NCBI GenBank assembly: GCA_041690355.1
Contig: JAWLHK010000011.1
Span: 62,001-126,000 of the forward strand
Direction: 5' to 3'
Length of the DNA: 64,000 bases
From: a bacterium
Lineage (GTDB): Bacteria; J088; JAWLBW01
Shown here: positions 30,526 through 46,902 of the stretch, piece by piece
Layout: each line of letters begins with the position of its first letter
Position numbering within the stretch: the first letter of the stretch is position 1
The notes under the pieces: generated by a model
Database searches by the model: none
Seen by the model: only the letters and a program-made list of their open reading frames with translations
What the model was told of the DNA's origin: nothing
Program-made: the position numbers and the translations under genes

Positions 30526-30592
30526 GCAGGTACTTCGCTCGTAGAGGAGAAGCTTTCACACTAGCAGACCGAGGCCGCGAAATCCACCGTGC

Positions 30593-30621
30593 TTGACAGG
30601 CCGGCGCCCGATCCATACACT
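30593..30621 (+). promoter_or_regulatory. Sigma-70-type promoter
   Basis: TTGACA-N17-TACACT. Confidence 0.7.
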
Positions 30622-30669
30622 CCATCCGACGCGCAGAGCCGGCGGCATTGCGCAGGAGTGAAGTACCCT

Positions 30670-31764
30670 ATGGCCCGAATCCACGCAGTCGCACTGTTGA
30701 TCCTTGCCACCGTTCTCCCGGCCTGCGGCGAACCCGAGCCCGCCCCCCGCGAGCGTTCTCTGCAGGAGCGCCTGGTCGACCTCGGCGCCGAGCGCTATGC
30801 CGGCATCGAACCGAATCTCACCGAGCGATCGGGTGAGTGGGACGTCCACACCTTTCCCGTCGACAAGGCCCGCTGCCTGGACGGCAGCCCCTTCAAAGTC
30901 TCGGTACGCGAGGCGCAGCATTACGCCGTCCTGCTCTACCTCGAAGGGGGCGGCGCCTGCTGGGACGAAGCGACCTGCCACGGCTCGCGCCCGATGACCA
31001 AGCGTTCGGCTTCTGCCATCCCCCTCGAGATGCGCGACACCGGCATTCTGAACCGCTACCAGCCGACGAATCAGTACGTCGGGGCCAGCGTCGTGCACGC
31101 CTCGTACTGCGACGGCAGCATGTGGCTCGGCGATCAGGACGTCACGTACGGCGAAACCCTGACGTACCACCGCGGCCTTGCCAACGTCTCGGCTGCCGTC
31201 GACACGATGAAGCGTCGTTTCCCGCACCCGTCGGTCATCATCCTCGCGGGGAGCAGCGCGGGCGGATACGGAACGATGAGCGCGTACGTCGTCGCGCGCA
31301 ACCGCTACCCCGGCACCCCCATCGTGATCTTCAACGATTCGGGCCCCTGGCTGCTCAACGCCGACAAGCACGCCATGTATAGCGGAACGATGGAAAACTG
31401 GCCGCTCGCGCCGCTCCTGCCGAACGACTGTGCGGGTTGTGACACCCAGCCCATTCACCTCGCGCGGTGGGTTCTCGACCGGGATCCCGGAACGCGCATC
31501 GCGCTGTTCAGCTACCGCGACGATCGCACGATGGCCGTCGACTTCCTCGGTCTGGGCGATTCATACCGCCCGCTACTCGAGCAGACTTCTGACGCCATTC
31601 ACGCCGCGCATCCCGATCGGTTCAAGCGGTTCTTCGTCGACGGCACCGGACACACCGTCCTGTTGACGCTCGACTACTACCAGATATCGCGCGACGGACA
31701 GCTGTTCTCCGACTGGTCGAACAAGCTTCTGGCCGGCAGCGCGGCCTGGGTCGACCGGCCCTGA
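30670..31764 (+). CDS. Pectinacetylesterase/Notum-family hydrolase lipoprotein
   Basis: Lipobox LPAC; CLDGSP, YLEGGGACW, YCDGS, GSSAGGYG, GTGH. Confidence 0.85.
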   Translation: MARIHAVALLILATVLPACGEPEPAPRERSLQERLVDLGAERYAGIEPNLTERSGEWDVHTFPVDKARCLDGSPFKVSVREAQHYAVLLYLEGGGACWDEATCHGSRPMTKRSASAIPLEMRDTGILNRYQPTNQYVGASVVHASYCDGSMWLGDQDVTYGETLTYHRGLANVSAAVDTMKRRFPHPSVIILAGSSAGGYGTMSAYVVARNRYPGTPIVIFNDSGPWLLNADKHAMYSGTMENWPLAPLLPNDCAGCDTQPIHLARWVLDRDPGTRIALFSYRDDRTMAVDFLGLGDSYRPLLEQTSDAIHAAHPDRFKRFFVDGTGHTVLLTLDYYQISRDGQLFSDWSNKLLAGSAAWVDRP

Positions 31765-31954: not shown

Positions 31955-32731
31955 GTGGAGTCCACAGTGAACAGATTTTTTGTCCGCAACGGGAAACTCC
32001 TGCTGGCCGCATGCCTTCTGGTGGTGCCGGCCTATTCCCGCGCAGAAGAACCCTCCCAACATCAGCTGGTCGACAGCATCATTGCCCTGCGCACCGAGGT
32101 CGAAGACCTGGAGGCGCGTCTGCGCAGCCTGAAGTCCGATCACGGTACGCGCATGTCGGCTCTCGTCCGGGAAGAGGGGCAGCTGGCGGCCGAGCGGGAG
32201 CGTCAGCAGCTCCGGCTCAAAAAGATTGAACAGCAGCTGGCGCGGCAGAAGCAGGCCGCGCAGGAAGAAGGGGTCGAAGGCGAAACGCTGCGCCCGGTCG
32301 TCCTGGAGGCGCTCGATGCCGTTGAAAACTACGTCGAGACCTCCCTCCCCTTCCGCCGCGAAGATCGTCTGGCTTCGGTGCGCACGGTGCGAAGCGAACT
32401 TGAATCCGGCGTGCTCGAGCCCTCGCGGGCGTTGAATGCGCTGTGGTCGTTCGTGGCCGATGAAATCCGCATGACGGGCGAGGCGGGCCTTTTCCGCCAG
32501 CCAATCCGCATCGACGACGAAGATAAACTCGCCGACGTGGCGCGTCTGGGGATGCTCCAGCTCTACTTCCGCACGGATGACGGACGCGTCGGACTCTGGA
32601 CAGAGGACGGATTCCGCTATGTCGAGGGCGAAGACCGGGAGCGCATCCTTGCGTGGATGAGTTCCCTGCGCAAGAACGTGCGCTTCGGATACTTCGAACT
32701 TCCCCAACCCGTTCGCACGTCGGAGAAATGA
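31955..32731 (+). CDS. DUF3450-like periplasmic coiled-coil protein (TtpB-like)
   Basis: Signal peptide, coiled coil, LPFRREDRL and RLGMLQLYFRT; first gene of the TonB operon; exact start uncertain. Confidence 0.8.
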   Translation: MESTVNRFFVRNGKLLLAACLLVVPAYSRAEEPSQHQLVDSIIALRTEVEDLEARLRSLKSDHGTRMSALVREEGQLAAERERQQLRLKKIEQQLARQKQAAQEEGVEGETLRPVVLEALDAVENYVETSLPFRREDRLASVRTVRSELESGVLEPSRALNALWSFVADEIRMTGEAGLFRQPIRIDDEDKLADVARLGMLQLYFRTDDGRVGLWTEDGFRYVEGEDRERILAWMSSLRKNVRFGYFELPQPVRTSEK

Positions 32732-34167
32732 GTATGCGCACGATTAGAAGTATGTTTCTTTTCGCGATGGGCTCGATGATCCCGGTAGTTCTTCCGGCTG
32801 CCGCCGTCCTGCTCGTTCCAGGCCCGGTCCATGCCGAGCCAACCGCGCCAGCTGAGGCCCCGCGCGAAAAACCCGGCGCTCCGGATGAACTCCGCCTTGC
32901 ATACCAGAAGGAATACGCTTTTCTCGCGGCCCAGAAACGCGACCTGGAGCGGCGCATCGCGGACTTCAACAGGGAAGCTGCGAAGACGGTGGCCGAAACC
33001 GAAGCGCGCATCGATCGCCTTCAGGACGAAGTGCTCGACCTGGAACGCAGGGCCGACAATGGGAAGGACGCACTCGCCGAAGCCGAGAAGCGACGCCTGG
33101 ATACGCAGCGGAACGAGGACATCGTGCGGGCAACGGTACAGCAGGCCGGCGTCACCTTTGAAGAATACCGCCCCGGTTCCCTGACCGACGCTGCATTTCA
33201 GGCCCTGCCCCGCGAGGAGCAGCTCGGCCGGCTCTTCCGGGAAAGCATTGCGCTGCTCGGCGAGCTGTCGACGATCCGCAAGGAACCCGGCGCCTTCTAC
33301 TCCGCGACGGGCGATCGCCTCGACGGCACCCTCGTACGCCTGGGGGCCATTGCGAGCTACGGCGTCGCCGAGTCTGCCGCCGGCATTCTTGTTCCCGCAG
33401 GCGCCGGCCAGTGGAAGCTCTGGCCCGACGCCCACCCCGATGCGGCACGCGCGCTCGCCCGGGGAGAAATCCCGCCCGCACTGCCGCTCTTCATCCACGG
33501 CAGTCAGAGCGAAGCGGTCGAGATCAGCGAAGAACGCGGCCTGCTCGAATACCTGAAAGCAGGCGGCCTGGTCGCCTGGTTCATCGTCGGACTGGGGCTC
33601 GTGGGCCTTGGCCTCGCCGTGCTGCGCATCCTCTTTCTCCGGCGGGCCAGCGCGAGCACGGGAGAAATCGTCGAGCAGGTCAGCGAACTGGTTCGCACCC
33701 AGCGTCTCGACGAGGCGCTCGCCGTCTGCAAGCGCAACCCCGGGTCGACCTCGGCCGTCGTCGCCGCGGCCCTGCGCAATCTGCACCGCGACCGCGAATC
33801 CCTCGACGATATCGTCAACGAGGCCATTCTGCACGAGAGCACGCACCTGGAACGCTTCGGCACCATGATTCTCGTCATTGCCGCCGTCGCTCCGCTTCTT
33901 GGCCTGCTGGGTACGGTGACCGGGATGATCGCCACCTTCGACATTATTACCGAGCATGGCACGGGCGATCCGAAGCTTCTCTCCGGCGGCATTTCGGTCG
34001 CCCTGATCACCACCGAGCTCGGGCTCATCGTCGCCATTCCCTCACTGCTCGTCGGCAACATCCTTTCGGGATGGGCCGACCGCATCAAGGACGACATGGA
34101 GAAGGCCGCCCTGCGCGTCTCGAATACGTACGAGCGCATCCTCGTGGCGGTCAGACAGGCGGCCTGA
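32728..34167 (+). CDS. Long MotA/TolQ/ExbB protein with periplasmic N-terminus (TtpC-like)
   Basis: Signal peptide and coiled coil, then APLLGLLGTVTGMI...SGGISVALITTELGL. Confidence 0.9.
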   Translation: MSMRTIRSMFLFAMGSMIPVVLPAAAVLLVPGPVHAEPTAPAEAPREKPGAPDELRLAYQKEYAFLAAQKRDLERRIADFNREAAKTVAETEARIDRLQDEVLDLERRADNGKDALAEAEKRRLDTQRNEDIVRATVQQAGVTFEEYRPGSLTDAAFQALPREEQLGRLFRESIALLGELSTIRKEPGAFYSATGDRLDGTLVRLGAIASYGVAESAAGILVPAGAGQWKLWPDAHPDAARALARGEIPPALPLFIHGSQSEAVEISEERGLLEYLKAGGLVAWFIVGLGLVGLGLAVLRILFLRRASASTGEIVEQVSELVRTQRLDEALAVCKRNPGSTSAVVAAALRNLHRDRESLDDIVNEAILHESTHLERFGTMILVIAAVAPLLGLLGTVTGMIATFDIITEHGTGDPKLLSGGISVALITTELGLIVAIPSLLVGNILSGWADRIKDDMEKAALRVSNTYERILVAVRQAA

Positions 34168-34799
34168 TGCTGAACCGCGCCCTGGAGAATCTGGCCTTCT
34201 ATCTGGATGCGGGCGGCTACGTCATGCTGCCGCTGCTGCTGTCGAGCCTGCTCATCTGGTACGGAATCGGCTACCGGTGGTCGGTGCTCTACCGGCCGAA
34301 CGCCCGCAGCGTGCGGCGCCTGCTGCAGAAGCATGCGGGAGGCCATACGAAAGTTTCGGAAGGAATCGTGGAGCAGGCGGTCGTAAAAGGCCTCGCCGTC
34401 GCGCGGGAGAACCTTCCCCATCTCCGCCGCCATCTCGATGCGGCCTTCGGCGAGGATGAGAAGGACCTGCAGCGGTTCGGTCGCACCGTGCAGTCGCTCA
34501 TCGCCGCCGCTCCAATTCTTGGGCTGCTCGGCACGGTCGACGGCATGATTGCCACTTTCACCGCCCTCGGCGAGATGCAGCTCTTCAACCAGTCGGGCGG
34601 CATCGCCGGCGGCATTTCGCAGGCGCTGTTCACGACCCAGCTCGGGCTGGCCGTCGCCATCCCCGGGCTCGTCGTCAACGGCTTTCTCGAGCGCCGCGTC
34701 CAGGAGCGGCTGGTCGAACTCACGCAGCTCAAAGACATGCTCTGCGTGCAGGCCGACGAGCTGGCAACCGATACCCTTTCGGCCGGAGAAACGGCATGA
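34167..34799 (+). CDS. exbB: ExbB proton channel subunit
   Basis: APILGLLGTVDGMI, AGGISQALFTTQLGL; TGATG coupling. Confidence 0.88.
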   Translation: MLNRALENLAFYLDAGGYVMLPLLLSSLLIWYGIGYRWSVLYRPNARSVRRLLQKHAGGHTKVSEGIVEQAVVKGLAVARENLPHLRRHLDAAFGEDEKDLQRFGRTVQSLIAAAPILGLLGTVDGMIATFTALGEMQLFNQSGGIAGGISQALFTTQLGLAVAIPGLVVNGFLERRVQERLVELTQLKDMLCVQADELATDTLSAGETA

Positions 34800-35209
34800 G
34801 CGTCCGCAGACGAGCCCGCAGCGACACCACGCAGAGCATCGACATTTCGTCGCTCATCGACATGGTGTTCATCCTGCTCATTTTCTTCATGGTCAGCACC
34901 ACGTTCGTCAAGGACATGGATCTGGACATCGATCGGCCCAGCGCGCAGAGCGCGTCTCTCGCGGCACCCGATGCCATCCGCCTGTATATCGACCGCAACG
35001 GCGCAACCTACCTCGACGGCGAGCCGATCCGCATGTGGATGATCCAGAGCCGGCTGCGCACGCTTCTGCAGACTTCGCGCTCCAAAGCCGTTCTTCTCGT
35101 CACCGACGACTCGGTGCCCGCAGGCAAGCTGGTCGAGGTGGTCGATCAGGCGCGGCTTGCCGGAGCTGAGGTCGGCGTCTCGACGGAGCAGGAGGCCGGC
35201 GGACTGTGA
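34796..35209 (+). CDS. exbD: ExbD/TolR
   Basis: LIDMVFILLIFFMVSTTF with the conserved TM Asp. Confidence 0.92.
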   Translation: MSVRRRARSDTTQSIDISSLIDMVFILLIFFMVSTTFVKDMDLDIDRPSAQSASLAAPDAIRLYIDRNGATYLDGEPIRMWMIQSRLRTLLQTSRSKAVLLVTDDSVPAGKLVEVVDQARLAGAEVGVSTEQEAGGL

Positions 35210-35838
35210 CGCTCGAACTGCGCCATCGCCTTGCCGGCGCAGCAGCCTCGCTCGGCGGCACCGGTCTCGTCTTCTTTCTCGTGCTCGGCATGAACGAGCT
35301 CGAACGAAGCAACCGGTACGACGACCGCCCCGTGACGGCGGCCTTCGACGTGGCGCCGCCGCCTCCCGAACCGCCGGCTGCGGCGGAACCGGAACCGCTG
35401 CCCGAACCCGAGCCGCTCGAGCCGCCCGCCCCCCCGCCGCTTGCCGATCTGGCCTCCGACAACGGCAGCATCGACATCCCGGTTCCCGGTTTTGACGACC
35501 GCGAGCTCGATCGCGCCGCGGGCGGGGCTGACGCCGATCGCGACATGGTCATGACCGACGATACGGTCGACAGGCCGCCGAAAGCCGCGCGGCAGGTTGC
35601 CATGGCCTATCCCGCCGACGCCAAACGCAAAGGAATCGAAGGGCACGTCATCCTGAGTATCCTCATCGACGAAGAAGGCCGGGTCCGGCAGGCGCGCGTC
35701 CTCGAGTCGACCCCGCCGGGGGTCTTCGATGATGCAGCCTTGAGCGCGGTCCGGCAATGGGAATTTGAACCGGCCGGCTACCAGGGCAAAAACGTCCGCG
35801 TCTGGGCCCGTCAGACGTTCCGCTTCGCCTTGGACTGA
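35206..35838 (+). CDS. tonB: TonB energy transducer
   Basis: N-terminal TM, Pro/Glu-rich spacer, YPADAKRKGIEG...WEFEPA TonB_C domain. Confidence 0.92.
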   Translation: MTLELRHRLAGAAASLGGTGLVFFLVLGMNELERSNRYDDRPVTAAFDVAPPPPEPPAAAEPEPLPEPEPLEPPAPPPLADLASDNGSIDIPVPGFDDRELDRAAGGADADRDMVMTDDTVDRPPKAARQVAMAYPADAKRKGIEGHVILSILIDEEGRVRQARVLESTPPGVFDDAALSAVRQWEFEPAGYQGKNVRVWARQTFRFALD

Positions 35839-35866
35839 GCTTTAGAACTGAACGGCTGTATCAACG

Positions 35867-37075
35867 ATGCGATTCTTCAAACGCCCGGCGCTTCTTCTCA
35901 TCGGCCTGGTTTTGTGCGCGCCCGCACGTCCCGCCCAGGCCGCACGCGACGAGGTGAACTACCTGGAGCAGGCTGCACGACTGACCGCCGACGGAAACTA
36001 CGACAGAGCCGAAGCCGCGCTGCGCAACGTGAACCGCGAGGCTGAGGATTTCGACCCGGCGCGGTACGACACGCTTGCCGGGTTGATCGCCCTGCGCAAA
36101 GGGGATCCCCGGAGCGCCCTTCCCGCGCTCGAACGCGCCTGCGATGAATACGACAGGAGGCTCTCGACGCCGAAGCTTTCCGCAACTGCGCAGGCCGAAT
36201 TGCGCACCGCCAATGAGCGCGTGCACCTCTATCTCGGCCAGGCCCACATGCAGACGGGCGAATTCGGCCGGGCGCTGACTTCCCTGGACGCCGCCGGTTC
36301 GGTGGGTGACGGCATCCCCATGGTTCATGCCCTGCGCGCCCAGGCCCACTGGGAGCTGAAAGAGTGGAATGCCGCTTTCACGGCCCTCGATCGCGGAGCC
36401 GGACGCTTTCCGGGAGATCACTCATTTCTGCGCCGGAAGATCTTCTATCTGATCCAGCTGGGATTTCATCAGCGCGCGGTTGAGCTTGGAACGGAGTATC
36501 TGCGGATCGCCAATCCGCAGGCGGCCGATTACCTGGCCCTCGGCAGCGCATTGCGCCGGAGCGGCCAGCCCGCACGCGCGTTGGCAATCCTCGAGCATGC
36601 GCGGATGTTGTATCCGGAAGACCGTAATCTGGCCGTCGAACTGGCGAATGCCTGGATTGATCAGGGGAGCGTCGGCGCCGCGGCCGATATCCTGGCCGAA
36701 GCAGCGATACGGCATCCCGATGTGCTGGTCGAGGCCGCCGAGCTCCAGCGCCGGGCCGGACGGTTTCACCGGGCGTTGCTCTTGAACTCCGCCGTCCCCG
36801 ACCAGGCAAAAAAGTTCCGCCAGCGTCTCGCGATTTACGTTTCGATGGAGCGCTGGGAGATGGCGGCAAGCATGGGTGACGCCCTGAAACGCACCGCGCT
36901 GCTCTCGGTCGACGACATCCGTTACGCCTATGCCTACGCGCTCTTCAAGACGGGCGCACTCGATGAGGCGGAGCTGATGCTCGGGGGCATTTCGGACGGC
37001 GAACTGTTCCGCAAAGCGGCCGCGCTGCGCTCGACCATGCAATCGTGCCGCAGCGAGCGCTGGAGATGTCTGTAG
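35867..37075 (+). CDS. Periplasmic TPR protein (TtpD-like)
   Basis: Signal peptide (AQA); repeated helical TPR-like motifs. Confidence 0.8.
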   Translation: MRFFKRPALLLIGLVLCAPARPAQAARDEVNYLEQAARLTADGNYDRAEAALRNVNREAEDFDPARYDTLAGLIALRKGDPRSALPALERACDEYDRRLSTPKLSATAQAELRTANERVHLYLGQAHMQTGEFGRALTSLDAAGSVGDGIPMVHALRAQAHWELKEWNAAFTALDRGAGRFPGDHSFLRRKIFYLIQLGFHQRAVELGTEYLRIANPQAADYLALGSALRRSGQPARALAILEHARMLYPEDRNLAVELANAWIDQGSVGAAADILAEAAIRHPDVLVEAAELQRRAGRFHRALLLNSAVPDQAKKFRQRLAIYVSMERWEMAASMGDALKRTALLSVDDIRYAYAYALFKTGALDEAELMLGGISDGELFRKAAALRSTMQSCRSERWRCL

Positions 37076-37093
37076 TACCCGGATTTTACACTC

Positions 37094-40000
37094 ATGATTT
37101 TCCGCACCCGTTTTGCTGTATTTTTTCTCTGCCTCTTCTTCGCCGGGCGCGCCGCTGCCGATATGCCGTCCGGAAATGACAAGGGCGAAGACAGCCGCAC
37201 CCATCTCCTGCTGATCGTGTTCGAGAACGGCGCGCCGGCCCCCGGAGTCGACTTGGTCGTCGACGACACCGCCATCGCCGCAACCGGAAGCGATGGCGCC
37301 ATCGAGGCCCTCATCCCCGGCGGACGTCAGAGGCTCTCGCTCGTGCGCGACGGTCAGGTTCTCGGCCGGCTGGAACTGGTTACCGAAAGCCCCGTCGTGC
37401 AGATTCTGGCCACAGTCCCAGGGCCAGGGCAGGCCATGGTTTTCGACGTCGAGGGGGGGGGCGCCGGAGCCGCGGCCGCACCCGCCCCGGCTACCGCCGC
37501 CGTCTCCGGCATCGTTGCCGGAAAGGTCGTCTCTGCGGAATCGAACCAACCAGTACGCGGCGCGCAGCTCTACTTCTCTGGTCTTACCCTGCGCAGCACG
37601 ACGGATGCTGACGGCGTTTATCAAGTCGAGATCCCGGCCGGCACGTACCAGCTTTCGGTGGTGCACCCCGATTTTGCAACGCAGACGCTCGACGGCATCG
37701 CGGTTTCGGAAAAAGGAGAGGCGGTGCACGACATTGCGCTCAGCCCCGCCGGTGTTCTCCTCTCCGACTACGTAATCACGGCGCCGCATATCGAGGGCAG
37801 CGTTGCATCGATGATTGAGGAACAACGCGAAAGCTCGGGGGTCACCGAAGTTCTCGGCGCCGAACAGATGGCGCGTTCGGGCGACTCCAGCGCGGCCGAC
37901 GCGCTGAAACGGGTGACGGGGCTCCTCATCGAAGACGGCAAGTACGTGGTCATCCGCGGCCAGCCGTCGCGCTATACGCAGACATTGTGGAATGGTTCGC
38001 CCCTGCCGAGCCCGGACCCGATTCGCCGGATTGTTCCGCTCGACCTTTTCCCCACCGGCGTTCTCGCGAGCATTGAGGTCGAGAAGAGCTATGATGCTGA
38101 AGCGCCCGGCTCCTTCGGCGGCGGTCTGATCCGCCTCGAAACCGTGGGCGTCCCGGACGACGATTTTCTGGCTGTTTCCGGCAAGGTCGGGGGCAACAGC
38201 ATCACCACGTGGAAGCCCGGGCTCGACTACGAAGGGGGCAGTACTGACATTCTCGGATACGACGACGGCACGCGCGCCCTGCCCCCCGGGCTCGACCCCG
38301 ATGCCTCCCGGAAACAAGTCGAGGAGGCGGCCGGCGGCTTCAGCGATATCTGGGGGGTCGGTGAGAACACCCCCGGGGTCGATACGGGACTCGGTTTGTC
38401 CCTTGGGAAACGGGTGCGGCTTCTCGGCGGCAACTGGGGGCTTCTGGCGGCGGGCAGCTGGGACCGTTCCTTCACCCGGACCGAAGAAATCCAGCGCGAC
38501 TACGCGCTCGGCGGCGAGGGTGCGCTCGTGCTCCGCAACGATCAGGTACGCACCCGCAGCGACATGGACGTCGACACCGGCGGCCTTCTGGTCGGTGCGG
38601 CAGAATGGGAACGACATAAGTTCCGCAGCAATACCTTCTTCATCCGCAAGTCGACGAAGCGGAGCGAACTGCGCGAAGGGACCCGGGTCGTCAGCGACGA
38701 TCTCTACATCAACGACTACACCCTCGAGTGGACCGAGCGCAGCCTCTTCGCCGAGCAGTTGACGGGCGAGCACGACTTCGGCCCCTTCATGCTGGCCTGG
38801 CGCGGCATGACGGCGCAGAGCTCCAGCGATTCCCCCGATCAGCGCCGGTACATCTATCGTCGAAACAGCGAAGGCGATTTCCTCTTCTTCAACCAGGCCA
38901 AGGCGATTCGCAAGTATGTCTCGAGCCGCGATGACATCCTCAGCTTTGATGCCGACCTGCGCGTCCCCGTTCTGGAGCGGCCCCGGTGGAAGGCGGAGGC
39001 CTTCGGCGGCGTATCGCTCTATTCGCAGGACCGGGAATCGAACACGCGCCGCTTCAGTTTCGAAACGAAGGGCGAACCCGACCTGGCCCAGGCTCCGGAC
39101 GACCTTCTCGATCCGTCCACGCTCGGTGAAACGCTCGTCGTGAAGGATCAGACGCAGACCAACGACAACTACCTTGGCGATGCCAGCGTCCGCGGATTCT
39201 ACCTCAAGGGAGACGTAGACTGGGCCGAGCAGGTTCGACTCACGTTCGGCGCGCGGCAGGAATCGGCCGATTTCCGGGTGCGCACCTTCGTCGCGGGCGG
39301 CCGCAAGGGGGGCAAGGAGGTCGAGGGCGGATTCGAGGACAGCGATGTGCTGCCCTTTGCCGCGGTAACCTGGCGGTTCCTCGACAGCATGCAGCTCCGG
39401 GCCTCCGGCGCGCGCACCCTTTCGCGCCCAATCCTGAACGAGCTGTCGCCGGCGCGGTACTTCGATCCCGATTCGGGCGACGAGTATCTGGGCAACCCCG
39501 AGCTGCGTCCGGCCGTCATCGACGGGTACGACATGCGCTGGGAGTGGTACCCCTCGAACCGGGAATCGATATCGGCGGGCCTTTTCCGCAAGGACTATAC
39601 GGACCCCATCGAGCAGACGTTCGTCGGCGTGGGCGGCTCGACCTTTCTGCGCCAGGTGCAGAACGCCGCCGGCGCCTACGTCAACGGACTCGAGCTGGCG
39701 GTGCGCGCCGATCTTGCCCGCCTGACGTCGCCCTTCGGTCTTTCGGAAGGGTGGGCGAAGCGCGTTTATCTGGCCGCCAACGCCGCGTTCGTCAAGTCCG
39801 AGGTTGAGCTGGCGAACCAGAACCTGGCGACGAGTGCCCGGCGCCCTCTCCAGGGGCAGGCCGACACGATGTACAACTTTCAGCTCGGGTACGACGGCGA
39901 GCGCCACGATGCCGATCTCTCGTGGAACCGGGTAGGCGAGCGCCTGTATCTGGCCGGCGTCCAAGGGCAGCCCGATGTCTATCAGACACCGGCTTCGCAG

Positions 40001-40162
40001 CTCGACTTCACCTATGCCTTCGCGCTGAGCCCCGACATCGGGCTCAAGGCCAAGGCGGGAAACCTGCTCGACCCCGAGCTTGTTTTTACCCAGGGCGGAG
40101 AAATCTTCCGCAGCTACCGCAAGGGGCGCGATTTCAGCCTCTCGATCGGGTACCGGCTCTGA
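37094..40162 (+). CDS. TonB-dependent receptor with N-terminal carboxypeptidase-regulatory-like extension
   Basis: Signal peptide, plug motifs (GDSSAADALKRVTG, IRGQPSRY, PLDLFP, GSFGGG), GNPELRP, C-terminal GRDFSLSIGYRL. Confidence 0.95.
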   Translation: MIFRTRFAVFFLCLFFAGRAAADMPSGNDKGEDSRTHLLLIVFENGAPAPGVDLVVDDTAIAATGSDGAIEALIPGGRQRLSLVRDGQVLGRLELVTESPVVQILATVPGPGQAMVFDVEGGGAGAAAAPAPATAAVSGIVAGKVVSAESNQPVRGAQLYFSGLTLRSTTDADGVYQVEIPAGTYQLSVVHPDFATQTLDGIAVSEKGEAVHDIALSPAGVLLSDYVITAPHIEGSVASMIEEQRESSGVTEVLGAEQMARSGDSSAADALKRVTGLLIEDGKYVVIRGQPSRYTQTLWNGSPLPSPDPIRRIVPLDLFPTGVLASIEVEKSYDAEAPGSFGGGLIRLETVGVPDDDFLAVSGKVGGNSITTWKPGLDYEGGSTDILGYDDGTRALPPGLDPDASRKQVEEAAGGFSDIWGVGENTPGVDTGLGLSLGKRVRLLGGNWGLLAAGSWDRSFTRTEEIQRDYALGGEGALVLRNDQVRTRSDMDVDTGGLLVGAAEWERHKFRSNTFFIRKSTKRSELREGTRVVSDDLYINDYTLEWTERSLFAEQLTGEHDFGPFMLAWRGMTAQSSSDSPDQRRYIYRRNSEGDFLFFNQAKAIRKYVSSRDDILSFDADLRVPVLERPRWKAEAFGGVSLYSQDRESNTRRFSFETKGEPDLAQAPDDLLDPSTLGETLVVKDQTQTNDNYLGDASVRGFYLKGDVDWAEQVRLTFGARQESADFRVRTFVAGGRKGGKEVEGGFEDSDVLPFAAVTWRFLDSMQLRASGARTLSRPILNELSPARYFDPDSGDEYLGNPELRPAVIDGYDMRWEWYPSNRESISAGLFRKDYTDPIEQTFVGVGGSTFLRQVQNAAGAYVNGLELAVRADLARLTSPFGLSEGWAKRVYLAANAAFVKSEVELANQNLATSARRPLQGQADTMYNFQLGYDGERHDADLSWNRVGERLYLAGVQGQPDVYQTPASQLDFTYAFALSPDIGLKAKAGNLLDPELVFTQGGEIFRSYRKGRDFSLSIGYRL

Positions 40163-40302: not shown

Positions 40303-41841
40303 ATGGAATTTCGCAGTCTGAAATTTGCCGCCGCCTGCCTGGCCATCGCCTCGCTGGCCGCGTGCGAAGGCACTACCACCCCGGTCGTCGATACGGATGA
40401 CGACAACGGAAACGACCTTACGCCCGTGCTCAAAATCACCAGCGACCCGACCGATCTGGGTGGCCGCGGCGAATGGGGCGGCGTGGTGCTTAGCGGTTAC
40501 GGCCTCGTCAACAATGGCGACGACAACAAGCAGACGACGTCCGAAGCCGTGCCCGACGGCGTCACCCGCTGGTTCGGCGGCAGCAACAATGCCGATTCGA
40601 GCGGCACGATGCGCTACATCGTTCTCGCCGATACGGGCGAAGCCTTCCGCCCCGACGAAGAAGTCCAGGGGCTTACGGTCGAAGCGGCCGGCAGCGGCAC
40701 GCAGATCAGCTACCTGCAGGTCACGAACTCCGACGACGACGGCATCGAATGGTTCGGCGGTGCGCTCGGCGCCGATCACATCGTGGTGCAGGGTGCGAGC
40801 GACGATTCGCTCGACATGGACCTCGGCTACCAGGGCGCCATCCAGTACGCCCTCGTGATTCAGGGCGCATCGCACGGCGACAAGGGGATCGAATCGGACA
40901 GCAACGGCGACAACTTCGACGCCGCCCCCAAGTCATCGCCCGTCATCGCCAACCTGACCATTCTCGGCGACTTCGGCAACGGCGGCGCGGCCGACGCCAA
41001 CACGTCGGTTCTGCACCGCGAAGGGTTCGGCGGCCAGGTCTACCGCTCGGTTTACACTGACAACCTTCTTACGGGCGGCACGTTCGACAAGGGCTGCCTT
41101 GACCTGGACGACGAGGTTGACGAAGACCTTTTCTACGGCGACGTCGTCTTCAACTGTGCGACCGGCTTCATGCAGCATGACGACGACGCGTTCGCGGCCG
41201 ACTTCACCGGCGGCGCCTCGGCCGACATCGAAGAAGACGTCGACCTGACCATCGACGCGGCCACCCTGTCCATCACGGCCACCTGGGCCAAGAGCAACTA
41301 TGCGACGGAACTGGCCGCCGCCGGTCTCGACGACACCACCTACGTCGGCGCGGTCGACCCCGCCGCCTCGACGGCCTGGTGGGATGGCTGGACCATCCGC
41401 TCGGCGGGCATCGACGGCAACCTGCCGGGGAGCGCCAGCTTTCACCCGCTCGAGGCTGAAATCAAGGACGGCATCATCGTGCCGGCCAGCGAAAACGGCT
41501 GCGCCGACATCAATGCGGACTTCGAAGTCGGCGAACCGGTCGAAATTTTCGGCGTGACCTTCCCGGTCTGCGTGATTTCGCAGGCGATTCTCGAAAACAC
41601 CGTGCTCTCGAATGACCACGTCTACGTGCTCGACGGCACGGTCAATGTCGGCGACGGCGACGTCGAAGCCGCCAGCGACAAGGCTTCGACGACCAGCGTG
41701 GCGCTCGAGATCAAGCCGGGCGCCCAGGTCTTCGGCGTGAGCGGTTCGGCCGCCTCACTGGTCATCACCCGAGGGTCGACGATCAATGCGGTGGGCACCG
41801 CCGAACTGCCGATCGTCTTCGGCGGCGTCGAAGCCGAATAA
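40303..41841 (+). CDS. Acidic lipoprotein, TBDR-associated beta-helix-like family, apparently circularly permuted
   Basis: Lipobox LAAC; GEWGG, FGG...DSSG, DDGIEWFGG, DDSLDMDLGYQG, YVGA...WWDGWT. Confidence 0.85.
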   Translation: MEFRSLKFAAACLAIASLAACEGTTTPVVDTDDDNGNDLTPVLKITSDPTDLGGRGEWGGVVLSGYGLVNNGDDNKQTTSEAVPDGVTRWFGGSNNADSSGTMRYIVLADTGEAFRPDEEVQGLTVEAAGSGTQISYLQVTNSDDDGIEWFGGALGADHIVVQGASDDSLDMDLGYQGAIQYALVIQGASHGDKGIESDSNGDNFDAAPKSSPVIANLTILGDFGNGGAADANTSVLHREGFGGQVYRSVYTDNLLTGGTFDKGCLDLDDEVDEDLFYGDVVFNCATGFMQHDDDAFAADFTGGASADIEEDVDLTIDAATLSITATWAKSNYATELAAAGLDDTTYVGAVDPAASTAWWDGWTIRSAGIDGNLPGSASFHPLEAEIKDGIIVPASENGCADINADFEVGEPVEIFGVTFPVCVISQAILENTVLSNDHVYVLDGTVNVGDGDVEAASDKASTTSVALEIKPGAQVFGVSGSAASLVITRGSTINAVGTAELPIVFGGVEAE

Positions 41842-41864
41842 CGCACACCGTCCGCTCTCCTCAG

Positions 41865-41896
41865 AAGCCTCCGGGAAGTTTCCCGGAGGCTTTTTT
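41865..41896 (+). terminator. Intrinsic terminator ending the TonB locus
   Basis: AAGCCTCCGGGA / TCCCGGAGGCTT stem followed by a T run. Confidence 0.9.
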
Positions 41897-41971
41897 CTGT
41901 GCTCCCGCCGACCGGTTTCCCTTCAGACGCCCTGAATTGGCGCTGCGATCGCCCGGGCCAAGACTGAGGGC

Positions 41972-43875: not shown

Positions 43876-46800
43876 ATGGTCATGACTTGGCATCCGAAAC
43901 GCGGGCTCTGGTGGGTTGCATTGGGAGTCCTGGCCGCCGGCTGCGGCGGCGACGAGAACGCATTCGTCTTCTCAGATCGAACCGCGCCGCGCGTCGAAAG
44001 GTTTTCACCCGTCGACAAGGCGACGGACGTCGACGTGCGCGCCGAAGTCGAGGTGCAGTTCGACGAGTCGATCGCGCCGGCTTCGGTCGACGGCGAGGCC
44101 CTCGTGCTGACCGCCCCCGACGGCAACCCTGTCAAAGGGTTTCTCTCGCTGCAGACGACGCGCCTGCACCTGCGCCCCGCCCTCCCCCTCGAATACGCCA
44201 CCACCTACACCGTGCGGACGAGTGCGCGCATCACCGATCTCTTCGGCAACGAGGCCGCCGCCGTCACCTGGACCTTCACGACCGGCACAGACCGGGACCC
44301 GCCCCAGCAGCCGAATAATCTTCAGTACCCGGCGACCACGAACCGATCGACCGCGACCCTGACGGGAAACAAGGAACTCAACAGCGAAGTGCTCGTGAAC
44401 GGCAAGAAGCTCCCGGGCACGATGGGGGTCGGCGAGTTCACGGCGAAGCTCAGCCTCCCGGCCGAGGGCAAGAACAAATTCGAGCTGACGGCCGTCGACC
44501 CGGCCGGCAACGAGTCGGTCGCGGTGACCGTCACCATCGTTCGGGATACCGTGTACCCGAACCCCCTCGTGACGTGCGGCAGCGGAACCGGCGCGACGAC
44601 GCGCGGCATTCTCTGGCATTACGGCGCGGCCCAGACCGCCTGCTGGGATCCGCCCGATCCGCTCTACTGGACGAACATCAGCCTGCCCTTCGGCATTCAG
44701 TGGACGCCGGGCGCCGGCGACGTCGCGCGGGTCGTACTCGACGGTGTCACGGTGATCGAGACCGCGTCGGCCAGCGCCGAGGACAACCTCTTTCGCTTCG
44801 GACGCCCCGAAGGCGCAGTCGTACTGAAAGCCGAAACCGTCGACGGCGCGGGCAACGTCACGCCCGCCTTTCAGCGCACCGTCATCGTCGATACGCTGGC
44901 CCCGGATCTCTTTGCGCTCGACGGATTTCCGCCTTTCGTAACATCGACTGCCGGCGAGGTCACCGTTGAAGGCGAGACGGCCGGCACGTGGACGGCCCTG
45001 GCCGACGGCGCGCCGCTCACGCCCGTCTCGTGCACGGCAGGCTCGTCGGCATCGCGCCAGGCGTGCGCCTATGACCTTTCGGGCTGGGGCGAAGGCGAAC
45101 ACCGGTTCTCGATTTCGATCACCGACGCCGCCGGTAACGTGAGCCGCCTGCTCCGGCACGCGCGCATCGACGCGACGCCGCCGGCGGTGCTGGCCCGCAT
45201 TCCCCAGCTCTCGGCCACGACCGGGAACAACCTCGTCCTGCATGCGTTCTTCGACGAACCGGTAACCCTCGGGACGCTGACGGTCGATCAGACCTCCGAC
45301 GTGCTGGCGGCCGAACCCTCGGCCGATCGCGCGCACTGGAAGGCGGCGTGGACCGCTCCGGGCAACGGCGCCTATACCGCCTCGGCCGTCGCGCGGGACG
45401 CGGCCGGTAACGCGACCGCCGTCACCTGGAGCTTCACGGCGAGCGGTTCGGCAAACTTTCCCCTGACCCTGGGCAGTCCGTCAGCGGCCACCGACGGGGC
45501 TTCCCGCACGGGCGGATTCATGCTCAGCGGCTTTCCGGCCAATCCGGTGCACGTCGTGCGCTACCGGCCCCGGCCGTCGGTCAACGCGTTCGCCATGGGG
45601 GTCACCACCGGGTCGACGATCACGCTGACCGGCGATCCGCTGTCCGAGATCGAGGGCCATGTGGAATCGTACAGCCAGGACGGCACGTGGGTGACCGCCC
45701 CCTTCGGCCCGATCTCGTGGAACGATCGGGCGCAGGTGGTCGCCGATACGGTGACCGCGCTCGAATACGCCTCCTTCGCCGCAGAGCCGGGAGCGGTGCC
45801 CGGCAGAACGGCCGGATTCCTGCTGACGACAGCCCTGGCGCCGCTGCAGCTGACGGCCGGCGCGACGTCGCTCACCCCCGTTGCCGGCGTCACCGGTTGC
45901 TCGGCCGATGAATACACCCCTTTTCCGCTCAGCCTCCTCTCCTGGCCCGATGCGCTGCACGGACGCGCCTGCGCCGCCTTCGGCGGAACCTATGCGGGTG
46001 TGTGGAACGTCAATCTGGAGACGGGCGCCCGGCAGAAGCACCTCGACGCTCCGCAGCAGACCCTCGAACGCGATTTCGGCGCCAGCCTCGCCACGGGCAT
46101 GCTCTTCGGCGGCGAACCGCAGGTCGTCGTCGGGGCCCCCGGCGCCGATCGGGTCTATGTCTACGCCACGACGACCGCCACGACGCCGCGCTGGATGCTG
46201 AGCGGCGACCTCGCCCGCGGAAATGCACGCTTCGGCGCCGCCCTGGCCGTGGCCTCCGACCATGCCGGCGCGGGAATCGCGACGCTCGCCGTCGCGGCCA
46301 GCCGCGAGCCGGCCATTTATTTCTTCGACGGCCCCGCGCTCGATGCGGCCGACGAAATTCCCCGTTACCGGACGCGCGTGGCGCTGCCGCTCGACGCATA
46401 CTGCGCCACTTTTCCCGTCTACGAACGCATGGAACTCCTTGCGCCGGGCGACGTCGACGGCGACGGCAGCGGCGACTTCGTGCTCGTCGGCTGGTCCTGC
46501 ACCGGCGAGGCTCTCGTGCGCGTCTTCTACGGCGGTGCGGGCGCCGGGGGCGACGCGGCCCCCCTGTCGACGCCGGCCTATCCGCGGCTCACCGACGTCG
46601 CGCGGCTGCCGAGCGGCTCCCTGCGCGCGCAGGCCAGGCCGCTGGGCGACCTGAACGGCGACGGGCTGGCCGATTTCGGCTTCATCGACGAATCGGGAGG
46701 CGGGATGCTGCGCGTCTTCTACGGAAGCGCGAGCGGCACGCCGCGCCAGGCGGTCCTGCTCCCCTCCGCGACCGCGCTGGGGGGCGTCACGACGCAGTGG

Positions 46801-46902
46801 AGCTGGCTGCTCGCGGGGACGATGGACCGCAACGGAGACGGACTTCCCGAGCTCATTCTGGGACGGAACTCGGCGTCGCCGACTCTGCTGCTGTGGCCCT
46901 GA
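43876..46902 (+). CDS. Large lipoprotein with Ig-like repeats and FG-GAP repeats
   Basis: Lipobox AAGC; DRTAPRV...WTFTT Ig-like domain, repeated D.AGN, VVVGAPG, GDVDGDG, GDLNGDG. Confidence 0.85.
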   Translation: MVMTWHPKRGLWWVALGVLAAGCGGDENAFVFSDRTAPRVERFSPVDKATDVDVRAEVEVQFDESIAPASVDGEALVLTAPDGNPVKGFLSLQTTRLHLRPALPLEYATTYTVRTSARITDLFGNEAAAVTWTFTTGTDRDPPQQPNNLQYPATTNRSTATLTGNKELNSEVLVNGKKLPGTMGVGEFTAKLSLPAEGKNKFELTAVDPAGNESVAVTVTIVRDTVYPNPLVTCGSGTGATTRGILWHYGAAQTACWDPPDPLYWTNISLPFGIQWTPGAGDVARVVLDGVTVIETASASAEDNLFRFGRPEGAVVLKAETVDGAGNVTPAFQRTVIVDTLAPDLFALDGFPPFVTSTAGEVTVEGETAGTWTALADGAPLTPVSCTAGSSASRQACAYDLSGWGEGEHRFSISITDAAGNVSRLLRHARIDATPPAVLARIPQLSATTGNNLVLHAFFDEPVTLGTLTVDQTSDVLAAEPSADRAHWKAAWTAPGNGAYTASAVARDAAGNATAVTWSFTASGSANFPLTLGSPSAATDGASRTGGFMLSGFPANPVHVVRYRPRPSVNAFAMGVTTGSTITLTGDPLSEIEGHVESYSQDGTWVTAPFGPISWNDRAQVVADTVTALEYASFAAEPGAVPGRTAGFLLTTALAPLQLTAGATSLTPVAGVTGCSADEYTPFPLSLLSWPDALHGRACAAFGGTYAGVWNVNLETGARQKHLDAPQQTLERDFGASLATGMLFGGEPQVVVGAPGADRVYVYATTTATTPRWMLSGDLARGNARFGAALAVASDHAGAGIATLAVAASREPAIYFFDGPALDAADEIPRYRTRVALPLDAYCATFPVYERMELLAPGDVDGDGSGDFVLVGWSCTGEALVRVFYGGAGAGGDAAPLSTPAYPRLTDVARLPSGSLRAQARPLGDLNGDGLADFGFIDESGGGMLRVFYGSASGTPRQAVLLPSATALGGVTTQWSWLLAGTMDRNGDGLPELILGRNSASPTLLLWP

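Follow-up and report, generated by a model that had tools for sequence, protein, structure and literature searches.

The gene at positions 40303..41841 (forward strand) of a 64,000-nt stretch of bacterial contig JAWLHK010000011.1 (hereinafter the window; positions are counted from its first letter unless stated otherwise) encodes a 512-residue lipoprotein (512 codons plus stop) of the family PF28492 (Beta_helix_4). Taken alone, the claim that this protein is a genuine circular permutation is almost certain, and it is very likely that it represents a permutant of a single beta-helix fold that has arisen through tandem forms. A permutation had been proposed earlier from the letters of the window (hereinafter the sequence-only reading); beyond that proposal, we observe that the segment order of the lipoprotein is common to a whole subclass of the family, that there are at least five further cut points, and that proteins with this order do not form a single clade.

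Segment Order of the Lipoprotein

Comparison of the lipoprotein (the query, P0001) with 119 homologues by BLASTP yields two patterns: about 90 of them give a pair of matches in swapped order, and about 28 align as a single match, mostly full-length and collinear (rows counted by eye). For example, residues 40–294 of the query correspond to residues 272–530 of P0006 (72% identity, 360 bits), and residues 297–511, to residues 55–269 (59%, 247 bits); P0002 is collinear with the query, with 68% identity over residues 1–512. The swapped match order is far beyond chance, and two such matches against single-domain homologues are the pattern that the sequence-only reading had named as support for permutation.

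The protein begins with MEFRSLKFAAACLAIASLAAC, containing the lipobox L-A-A-C21. Residues 1–21 (40303..40365, +) are read from the sequence as the signal peptide with the lipobox, and C21 aligns with the lipobox cysteine of the ACGG motif of homologues (alignment A1); the protein is a putative outer-membrane lipoprotein. A low-complexity acidic tether (residues 22–43; 40366..40431, +) leads from the putatively lipid-anchored cysteine to the fold. In homologues the region aligned to the tether varies and contains many G, S, D, and N residues, and the predicted local distance difference test score (pLDDT) of the structural model described below is low there (36–49 over residues 1–40).

The mature fold starts at K44-ITSDPTDLGGRGEWGG (nt 40432) and consists of three segments, X, Y, and Z. 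Segment X (residues 44–296; 40432..41190, +), delimited by the strand pattern, invariant residues, and BLASTP matches, is the main run of beta-helix coils and occupies the middle position in the canonical order. It has conserved acidic motifs, DDDGIEWFGG, SDDSLDMDLGY, GIESD, and HREG. Acidic residues E81, D98, E127, D146, D167, D168, D171, D173, E197, and D199 are invariant in A1, and the motifs holding them also hold invariant acidic residues in distant two-module proteins, as compared by motif and not in a joint alignment. Segment Y (residues 297–396; 41191..41490, +), defined by BLASTP matches, the alignment, and the model, is mostly non-repetitive, carries YVGAVDP, WWDGWT, and NLPG..FHPL.AEI, and forms the canonical C-terminus; Y347-VGA...WWDGWT364 is encoded by nt 41341–41394. 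Segment Z (residues 397–512; 41491..41838, +), assigned by BLASTP matches and the model, is the canonical N-terminal block, found here at the C-terminus. It consists of the C400...FPVC423 hairpin followed by approximately four coils, the last one ending with PIVF, so that the C-terminus reads ...NAVGTAELPIVFGGVEAE*, i.e., ...GTAELPIVFGGVEAE, with ...PIVFGGVEAE at its end. The motif positions given by the sequence-only reading (the start at about 40432, YVGA...WWDGWT at 41341–41394, and the C-terminal block) coincide with those listed here.

The same reading had given, as canonical for the family, the order in which a block ending with PIVF precedes TS...G.WGG...DDG.E.FGG...Y.GA...W..GWT. This order is real: it is the arrangement ZXY, which, singly or doubled, is usual in named genomes (Xanthomonas, Halieaceae, Porticoccaceae, Teredinibacter, Hirschia, Sphingomonadales, and Longimicrobium). 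The proposed exact junction PIVF|TS is right to within about ten residues, but not to the residue. In the ZXY forms of named genomes PI[VT]F is directly followed by TS or SS (PIVFTS in P0292), whereas in near relatives of the query about 10–13 residues (GAVEA...) separate PI[IV]F from IT.DP, and the cut in the query lies inside this short linker.

Cut Points and Tandem Forms in the Family

Hidden Markov models (HMMs) of segments X, Y, and Z were built from alignment A1 and scored against every protein collected. Among the 243 proteins with architectures assigned in this way there are 71 with the order YZX, 27 with XYZ, and 18 with ZXY, plus many tandem forms. We have then classified 312 family proteins, all from samples grown from query-seeded searches, by the cut point in the query residue numbering. 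The single-module proteins fall into six classes. The largest class, cut at ~295 (order YZX), comprises 76 proteins, 59 of them with a lipobox as recognized by our own pattern; the class of the query, cut at 44 (order XYZ), has 26 proteins (21 with a lipobox), and the class cut at ~396 (order ZXY), 14 proteins, all having a lipobox. The cuts at ~368 (eight proteins, seven with a lipobox), ~73 (four of four), and ~455 (one of two) are rarer. As the lipobox is found in most members of every class, the signal peptide remains fixed in front while the mature part rotates.

Direct reading of the rarer classes demonstrates that their N- and C-terminal ends are complementary. Proteins of the ~73 class start after the lipobox with ...VPNE.xSEA and end with ...ITG.P.D...RG.WGG...N, and those of the ~368 class start with ...FHPL.AEI and end with ...WWDGWT.... 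P0169 from the ~455 class starts with ...LNIEAGTQIF and ends with ...VGNGGVEDTAAE.

More than half of the classified proteins, 166 of 312, are tandems of two to five modules, 159 of which begin with Z, and 16 are fragments. Full-length collinear homologues of the query do exist, but the 26 collinear proteins, the query included, constitute the permuted subclass and not the typical form of the family, and hence the outcome that would have spoken against permutation, collinearity with typical homologues, is not what we observe.

Several members have additional features. Ten ZXY proteins of ~730 aa (P0088, P0093, P0094, P0099, P0102–P0105, P0109, and P0244) have an extra N-terminal domain of ~230 residues preceding Z; in P0244 this domain is duplicated along with the module. 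Bacteroidota members (P0290–P0310) have a C-terminal type IX secretion system (T9SS) sorting domain (PF18962) instead of the N-terminal lipobox; an anchor at the C-terminus should constrain permutation differently.

The assignment to the family is consistent among sources. The precomputed label PF28492.1 is found on the query and on all 120 listed proteins in a large protein database, and the Atlas neighbours of the query are PF28492 clusters in 100% of cases, with scores 0.97; the family is named Beta_helix_4 in Pfam 38.1, and relatives are annotated as “putative lipoprotein / pectate-lyase-like beta-helix”. An Atlas search excluding PF28492 produced weak leads only (≤0.85), to generic Beta_helix and NosD clusters. 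A family profile built from 27 collinear relatives and searched against representatives, at 50% identity, of 1.84 billion proteins matched 6313 cluster representatives at E ≤ 1e-3 (3079 if the limit is set to E ≤ 1e-30), many of the matched proteins being 900–2400 aa long with three to ten matched stretches.

Predicted Structure of the Module

The AlphaFold2 model of the query and the two-chain model of X plus Z were both based on our own 27-row alignment. The query model has pLDDT 84.3 and predicted template modeling score (pTM) 0.86 and shows a solenoid-like pattern of regular short strands spaced by ~22–25 residues. The confidence is high at both ends of the folded chain (96 and 90 for residues 41–60, 98 and 94 for residues 501–512) and falls at residues 67–80 and 451–460, the sites of two other cuts in the family. 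A fold search in the PDB returned right-handed beta-helix proteins only, all of them weak (best E = 4.8e-3, TM ≤ 0.24), and a search of the family profile against PDB chains by sequence produced only chance matches at E = 0.8–1 (best E = 0.78).

Modeled as two chains, X (44–296) and Z (397–512) are predicted to dock with ipSAE 0.89, compared to 0.32 for the best of three controls; as a rough guide, given that our own alignment was used, this mark is reached by 58 of 80 solved complexes and by two of 110 mismatched pairs. The runs share at least 99% of contacts, with partner pLDDT ≥ 89. The predicted interface involves residues 44–66 and 75–115 of X and 472–512 of Z, with strand pairing of 61–64 with 486–488 and of 102–108 with 494–506, and with residues 44–47 placed against 502–512. 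Hence, in the model the last coils of Z stack on the first coils of X and the termini meet. With residues 44 and 512 meeting in this prediction, the query would be a beta-helix nicked in the middle of the solenoid. Independent mobile domains, considered as an alternative to one fold, were rejected, since X and Z are predicted as one continuous solenoid.

With Z stacked on X in the model, and with the chain linking Y to the distal end of X on one side and to the beginning of Z on the other, Y must presumably run back along the whole solenoid. The module would then be a topologically closed ring, made of the continuous Z–X solenoid and of Y as the return path. Such closure would explain why cuts are tolerated at several places: the chain may be opened at any of them, leaving the fold unchanged. 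In the query, the chain would be open at the short Z–X linker; the lipid tether would come in at mid-solenoid, with the C-terminus (...PIVFGGVEAE) beside it.

Phylogeny of Segment Arrangements

In a FastTree tree of 350 X segments, 29 changes of the arrangement label are required, compared to the minimum of six. For a closer analysis, 51 proteins (35 of the query clade and 16 neighbours), picked after this first tree, were used to construct separate “quick” IQ-TREE trees of X and of Y+Z. The XYZ and YZX arrangements are interleaved in both trees, and the starred branches force at least eight changes of the XYZ label in the X tree and at least five in the Y+Z tree. For instance, P0057 (XYZ) pairs with P0080 (YZX) with support 99* for X and 100* for Y+Z; P0032 and P0035 (XYZ) are nested in a YZX group; and the query clade, P0001–P0005, is adjacent to P0006 (YZX). 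A single clade of all 19 XYZ rows is ~500 log-likelihood units worse in each partition and is rejected by the approximately unbiased (AU) test with p = 9.5e-9 (X) and p = 3e-43 (Y+Z).

Hence, XYZ proteins are not monophyletic, and the arrangement differs between proteins that are still 70–80% identical in X. The interleaving apparently reflects repeated duplication and trimming. P0057 and P0080 have an identical signal peptide of 23 residues and 72–74% identity both in X and in Y+Z, a pattern suggesting that the mature region evolves fast or recombines and the 5′ end is conserved. The idea that a single strain switches between XYZ and YZX in a programmed way has been considered and rejected, as even the closest pairs are ~25–28% different in sequence.

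Origin of the Permutation

We consider duplication the probable route. An internal tandem duplication of the module would be followed by loss of sequence at both ends, and repetition of such duplication and end trimming in PF28492 would produce both the six cut points and the interleaved phylogeny. Functional tandem forms are expected under the permutation-by-duplication model (PMC3320104). The tandem-duplicated ancestor invoked by the sequence-only reading accordingly gains support from the tandem proteins of two to five modules that make up 166 of the 312, including a close two-module relative, P0121 from a Myxococcota metagenome-assembled genome (MAG), which has the YZX arrangement twice with the linker/tether sequence also duplicated. 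The two modules of P0244 are near-identical. Among 75 tandem proteins from a sparse sample (representatives at 50% identity), there are 46 in which two or more modules find their best match within their own protein, which is suggestive of internal duplication.

A number of points weigh against the overall reading of one permuted fold that arose through tandem forms. Close multi-module relatives of the query clade are few (two of 72 “longer” matches exceed 40% identity), and clear forms of ~1.3–1.7 modules close to the query were not found. The class counts do not represent natural frequencies, as the samples were seeded by the query. The trees result from “quick” IQ-TREE or FastTree searches, and the formal AU test is weakened, as the groups were named after the first look at a tree. 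As the fold search gave no significant match, the term “beta-helix” relies on weak ones, the strand pattern, and the name of the Pfam family. The stacking of Z on X is a predicted interface, and two parts taken from a single protein tend to score well in this kind of test. Finally, the model of two-module P0274 (942 aa, 44-row alignment; pLDDT 87, pTM 0.66), in which the confidence falls at residues 491–500 between the modules, is compatible with beads on a string and equally allows for a fixed arrangement of modules.

The interleaved trees may be explained differently. A part of the interleaving could come from recombination among the arrangement classes or from hidden paralogs inherited from two-module ancestors, and in its full form this explanation holds that each arrangement arose once or a few times, later events being recombination or gene conversion between arrangements or sorting of old paralogous modules. 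Surface lipoproteins often recombine, and in some XYZ/YZX pairs, such as P0057 and P0080, the signal peptides match or exceed the mature parts in conservation, suggesting a mosaic history. However, the X and Y+Z trees yield broadly the same mixed clades (P0057 with P0080; P0032 and P0035 within YZX; the query clade beside P0006), which would not be expected if each segment had been converted independently, and placing all XYZ proteins in one clade is rejected by the AU test for X as well as for Y+Z. We therefore regard this explanation as unlikely, although it is the strongest competitor of repeated duplication. A different route to the same set of arrangements, fission and fusion, would have the module once split into separately encoded pieces (e.g., X and Y+Z), assembled non-covalently and later fused in different orders. 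The fold does tolerate nicks at six places, docking of X and Z is predicted even for unlinked chains, and in a Xanthomonas arboricola pv. guizotiae copy (locus L040, 3913–5658) an in-frame stop falls in the coils with which X begins; the reading frame is uninterrupted in other Xanthomonas loci, and the copy is either a pseudogene or a natural split. However, it has a single in-frame stop, and none of 80 loci carries the pieces as two adjacent complete lipoprotein genes; a search for short relatives (30–280 aa) retrieved only 14 proteins, mostly partial or located on contigs of 1–3 kb. Fusion in two orders also accounts for two arrangements rather than six cut points, and the whole-module tandem repeats predicted by duplication are abundant. 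Fission and fusion is thus quite improbable.

The least credible explanation, with a practically negligible chance of being correct, is that the XYZ order of the query results from chimeric assembly or is what remains of a two-module gene that broke, in neither case being a functional permutant. No sequencing run is listed that would allow for read mapping of the locus. Nevertheless, misassembly is unlikely: the gene, at 102303–103838 in contig coordinates, is in the interior of a 141-kb contig, and the sequence-only reading's alternative of an assembly break or a truncated two-domain gene conflicts with the intact signal peptide, the translation of 512 aa with zero internal stops, the gene's own stop codon, and the terminator following it. 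The flanks (140 nt upstream and ~130 nt downstream) are too short for remnants of a second module, and the structural model is confident. Moreover, 25 other proteins from other assemblies have the same order at 42–68% identity, among them proteins from Vreelandella utahensis (344-kb contig), a Halomonadaceae bacterium (3.4-Mb contig), and several MAGs, and the only genome of the same family among the 41 searched (40 relatives and the genome itself) has a collinear copy with 69% identity. Repeated duplication with trimming of the ends remains the preferred explanation.

Genomic Context and Putative Function

The lipoprotein gene is single-copy in the genome and is located directly downstream of a gene encoding a TonB-dependent receptor of 1022 aa (37094..40162, +), with a spacing of 140 nt. 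The receptor has an N-terminal carboxypeptidase-regulatory-like domain, a plug, and a beta-barrel (PF13620, 2.7e-14; PF07715, 1.1e-10; PF00593, 6.4e-26), and scores 227 bits against NCBIfam TIGR01782, under the cut-off of 310. At a distance of 22 nt past the stop codon of the lipoprotein gene we observe an intrinsic terminator (41863..41900, +), a 14-bp G+C-rich hairpin with a U run (−29.4 kcal/mol, z = −4.5, none of 200 shuffles as stable); it was identified by folding and not listed by a simple scan for consensus terminators.

The linkage to a receptor is characteristic of the family: of 80 related loci examined in species genomes, 75 have a homologue of this receptor next to the family gene on the same strand, upstream or downstream, and two of the five loci without an adjacent receptor start at a contig end. 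The lipoprotein may be a co-transcribed partner of the upstream receptor, probably residing on the cell surface, where the conserved acidic groove on X would capture, or possibly process, the receptor's substrate. In view of the receptor linkage and of the TonB system encoded upstream, we somewhat favor such a putative role. The replacement of the lipobox by the T9SS sorting domain in Bacteroidota members points to the cell surface.

A more speculative proposal, which we consider doubtful, is that PF28492 is an “any-phase” permutation system, in which frequent duplication and end trimming move the chain opening, and with it the point of tether attachment, to at least six places, as an adaptive re-aiming of a surface protein. 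Because the outer membrane would hold the N-terminus, the position of the cut would determine from where the shared binding groove is suspended: from one helix end in ZXY, from the middle in XYZ, and from the opposite end in YZX. Selection may act on the orientation or reach of the groove over the receptor, or on escape from phages or predators recognizing the exposed face. If this is true, circular permutation in this family would be an adaptive, recurrent process and not a rare frozen accident.

Upstream of the receptor gene, the complete set of genes of a TonB energizing system occupies 31955..37075 (+). They encode a DUF3450 protein, two proteins of the MotA/ExbB family (one of them large and ExbB-like), ExbD, TonB, and a tetratricopeptide repeat (TPR) protein (Pfam PF11932, PF01618 twice, PF02472, PF03544, and TPR families); the start positions of the two ExbB reading frames are approximate. 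Presumably, this gene order resembles the Vibrio TonB2 cluster (ttpB-ttpC-exbB-exbD-tonB-ttpD).

Just upstream of the TonB system, a 391-aa reading frame (30589–31764, +) matches the Pfam pectinacetylesterase family PAE (1.6e-20), which is a possible hint at a carbohydrate substrate. Downstream of the lipoprotein gene, a 1008-aa protein (43876–46902, +) combines FG-GAP repeats with several Ig-like domains of bacterial type and probably also belongs to the cell surface. Of the 40 relative genomes searched, one is from the same family, three are labeled with the same phylum, and the others share the domain only; given so few close relatives in the species collection, the source organism belongs to a thinly sampled lineage.

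Comparison With Known Systems

Permutation by duplication is textbook knowledge, and PF28492 is a catalogued but uncharacterized family. The literature search, whose coverage was incomplete so that an earlier mention is possible, found no paper naming PF28492 or Beta_helix_4 or describing a permuted beta-helix lipoprotein. What appears to be new is the combination of many cut points, coexisting tandem forms, apparent recurrence among close relatives, and a lipid tether at different points of one fold. Natural circular permutations are usually isolated and ancient, and duplicated intermediates are rarely seen alongside them. PF28492 unites six cut points, tandems of two to five modules, and permuted pairs 70–80% identical in X in one large family of marine and plant-associated bacteria, where it shows tight linkage to TonB-dependent receptors. 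Hence, it may serve as a test bed for the course of permutation by duplication, the tolerance of a beta-solenoid to a nick in the middle of the helix, and the effect of the tether position on service to the transporter. For annotation, a practical consequence is that many true members will be split or truncated if alignments or profile models of the family assume collinearity.

Right-handed beta-helix lyases and tailspikes (PL6 AlyGC, 5gkd; PL1, 9buj; PL3, 4yzx; phi29 gp12, 3gq7) are the only kind of fold returned for the model, none of them significantly, and membership in the polysaccharide lyase families PL1, PL3, or PL6 is backed neither by a PDB sequence match nor by a significant fold match. 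The conserved acidic residues on successive coils may be reminiscent of the Ca2+-binding and catalytic sites of pectate lyases.

Some TonB-dependent transporters have lipoprotein partners, such as SusD with SusC, TbpB with TbpA, and BtuG with BtuB. The PF28492 gene shares with these partners the tight linkage to the gene of a TonB-dependent receptor; the fold, a predicted beta-helix, is different, and searches of NCBIfam and of a Pfam copy that lacks PF28492, at E ≤ 1, yielded a single chance match and thus none to SusD-, TbpB-, or BtuG-type families.

Within PF28492 itself, the query is a member with rotated segments, X–Y–Z instead of Z–X–Y, and close parallels to this situation are the families with permutation by duplication. 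In DNA methyltransferases and the saposin/swaposin family, tandem and permuted forms coexist (PMC3320104), as they do here, and several permutation classes in one family, as in PF28492, occur in DNA methyltransferases. PF28492 differs from these classical families in the unit, a beta-solenoid of ~470 residues with an N-terminal lipid tether, in having at least six cut points, in the switching of arrangements at 70–80% identity in X, and in that the signal peptide stays in place.

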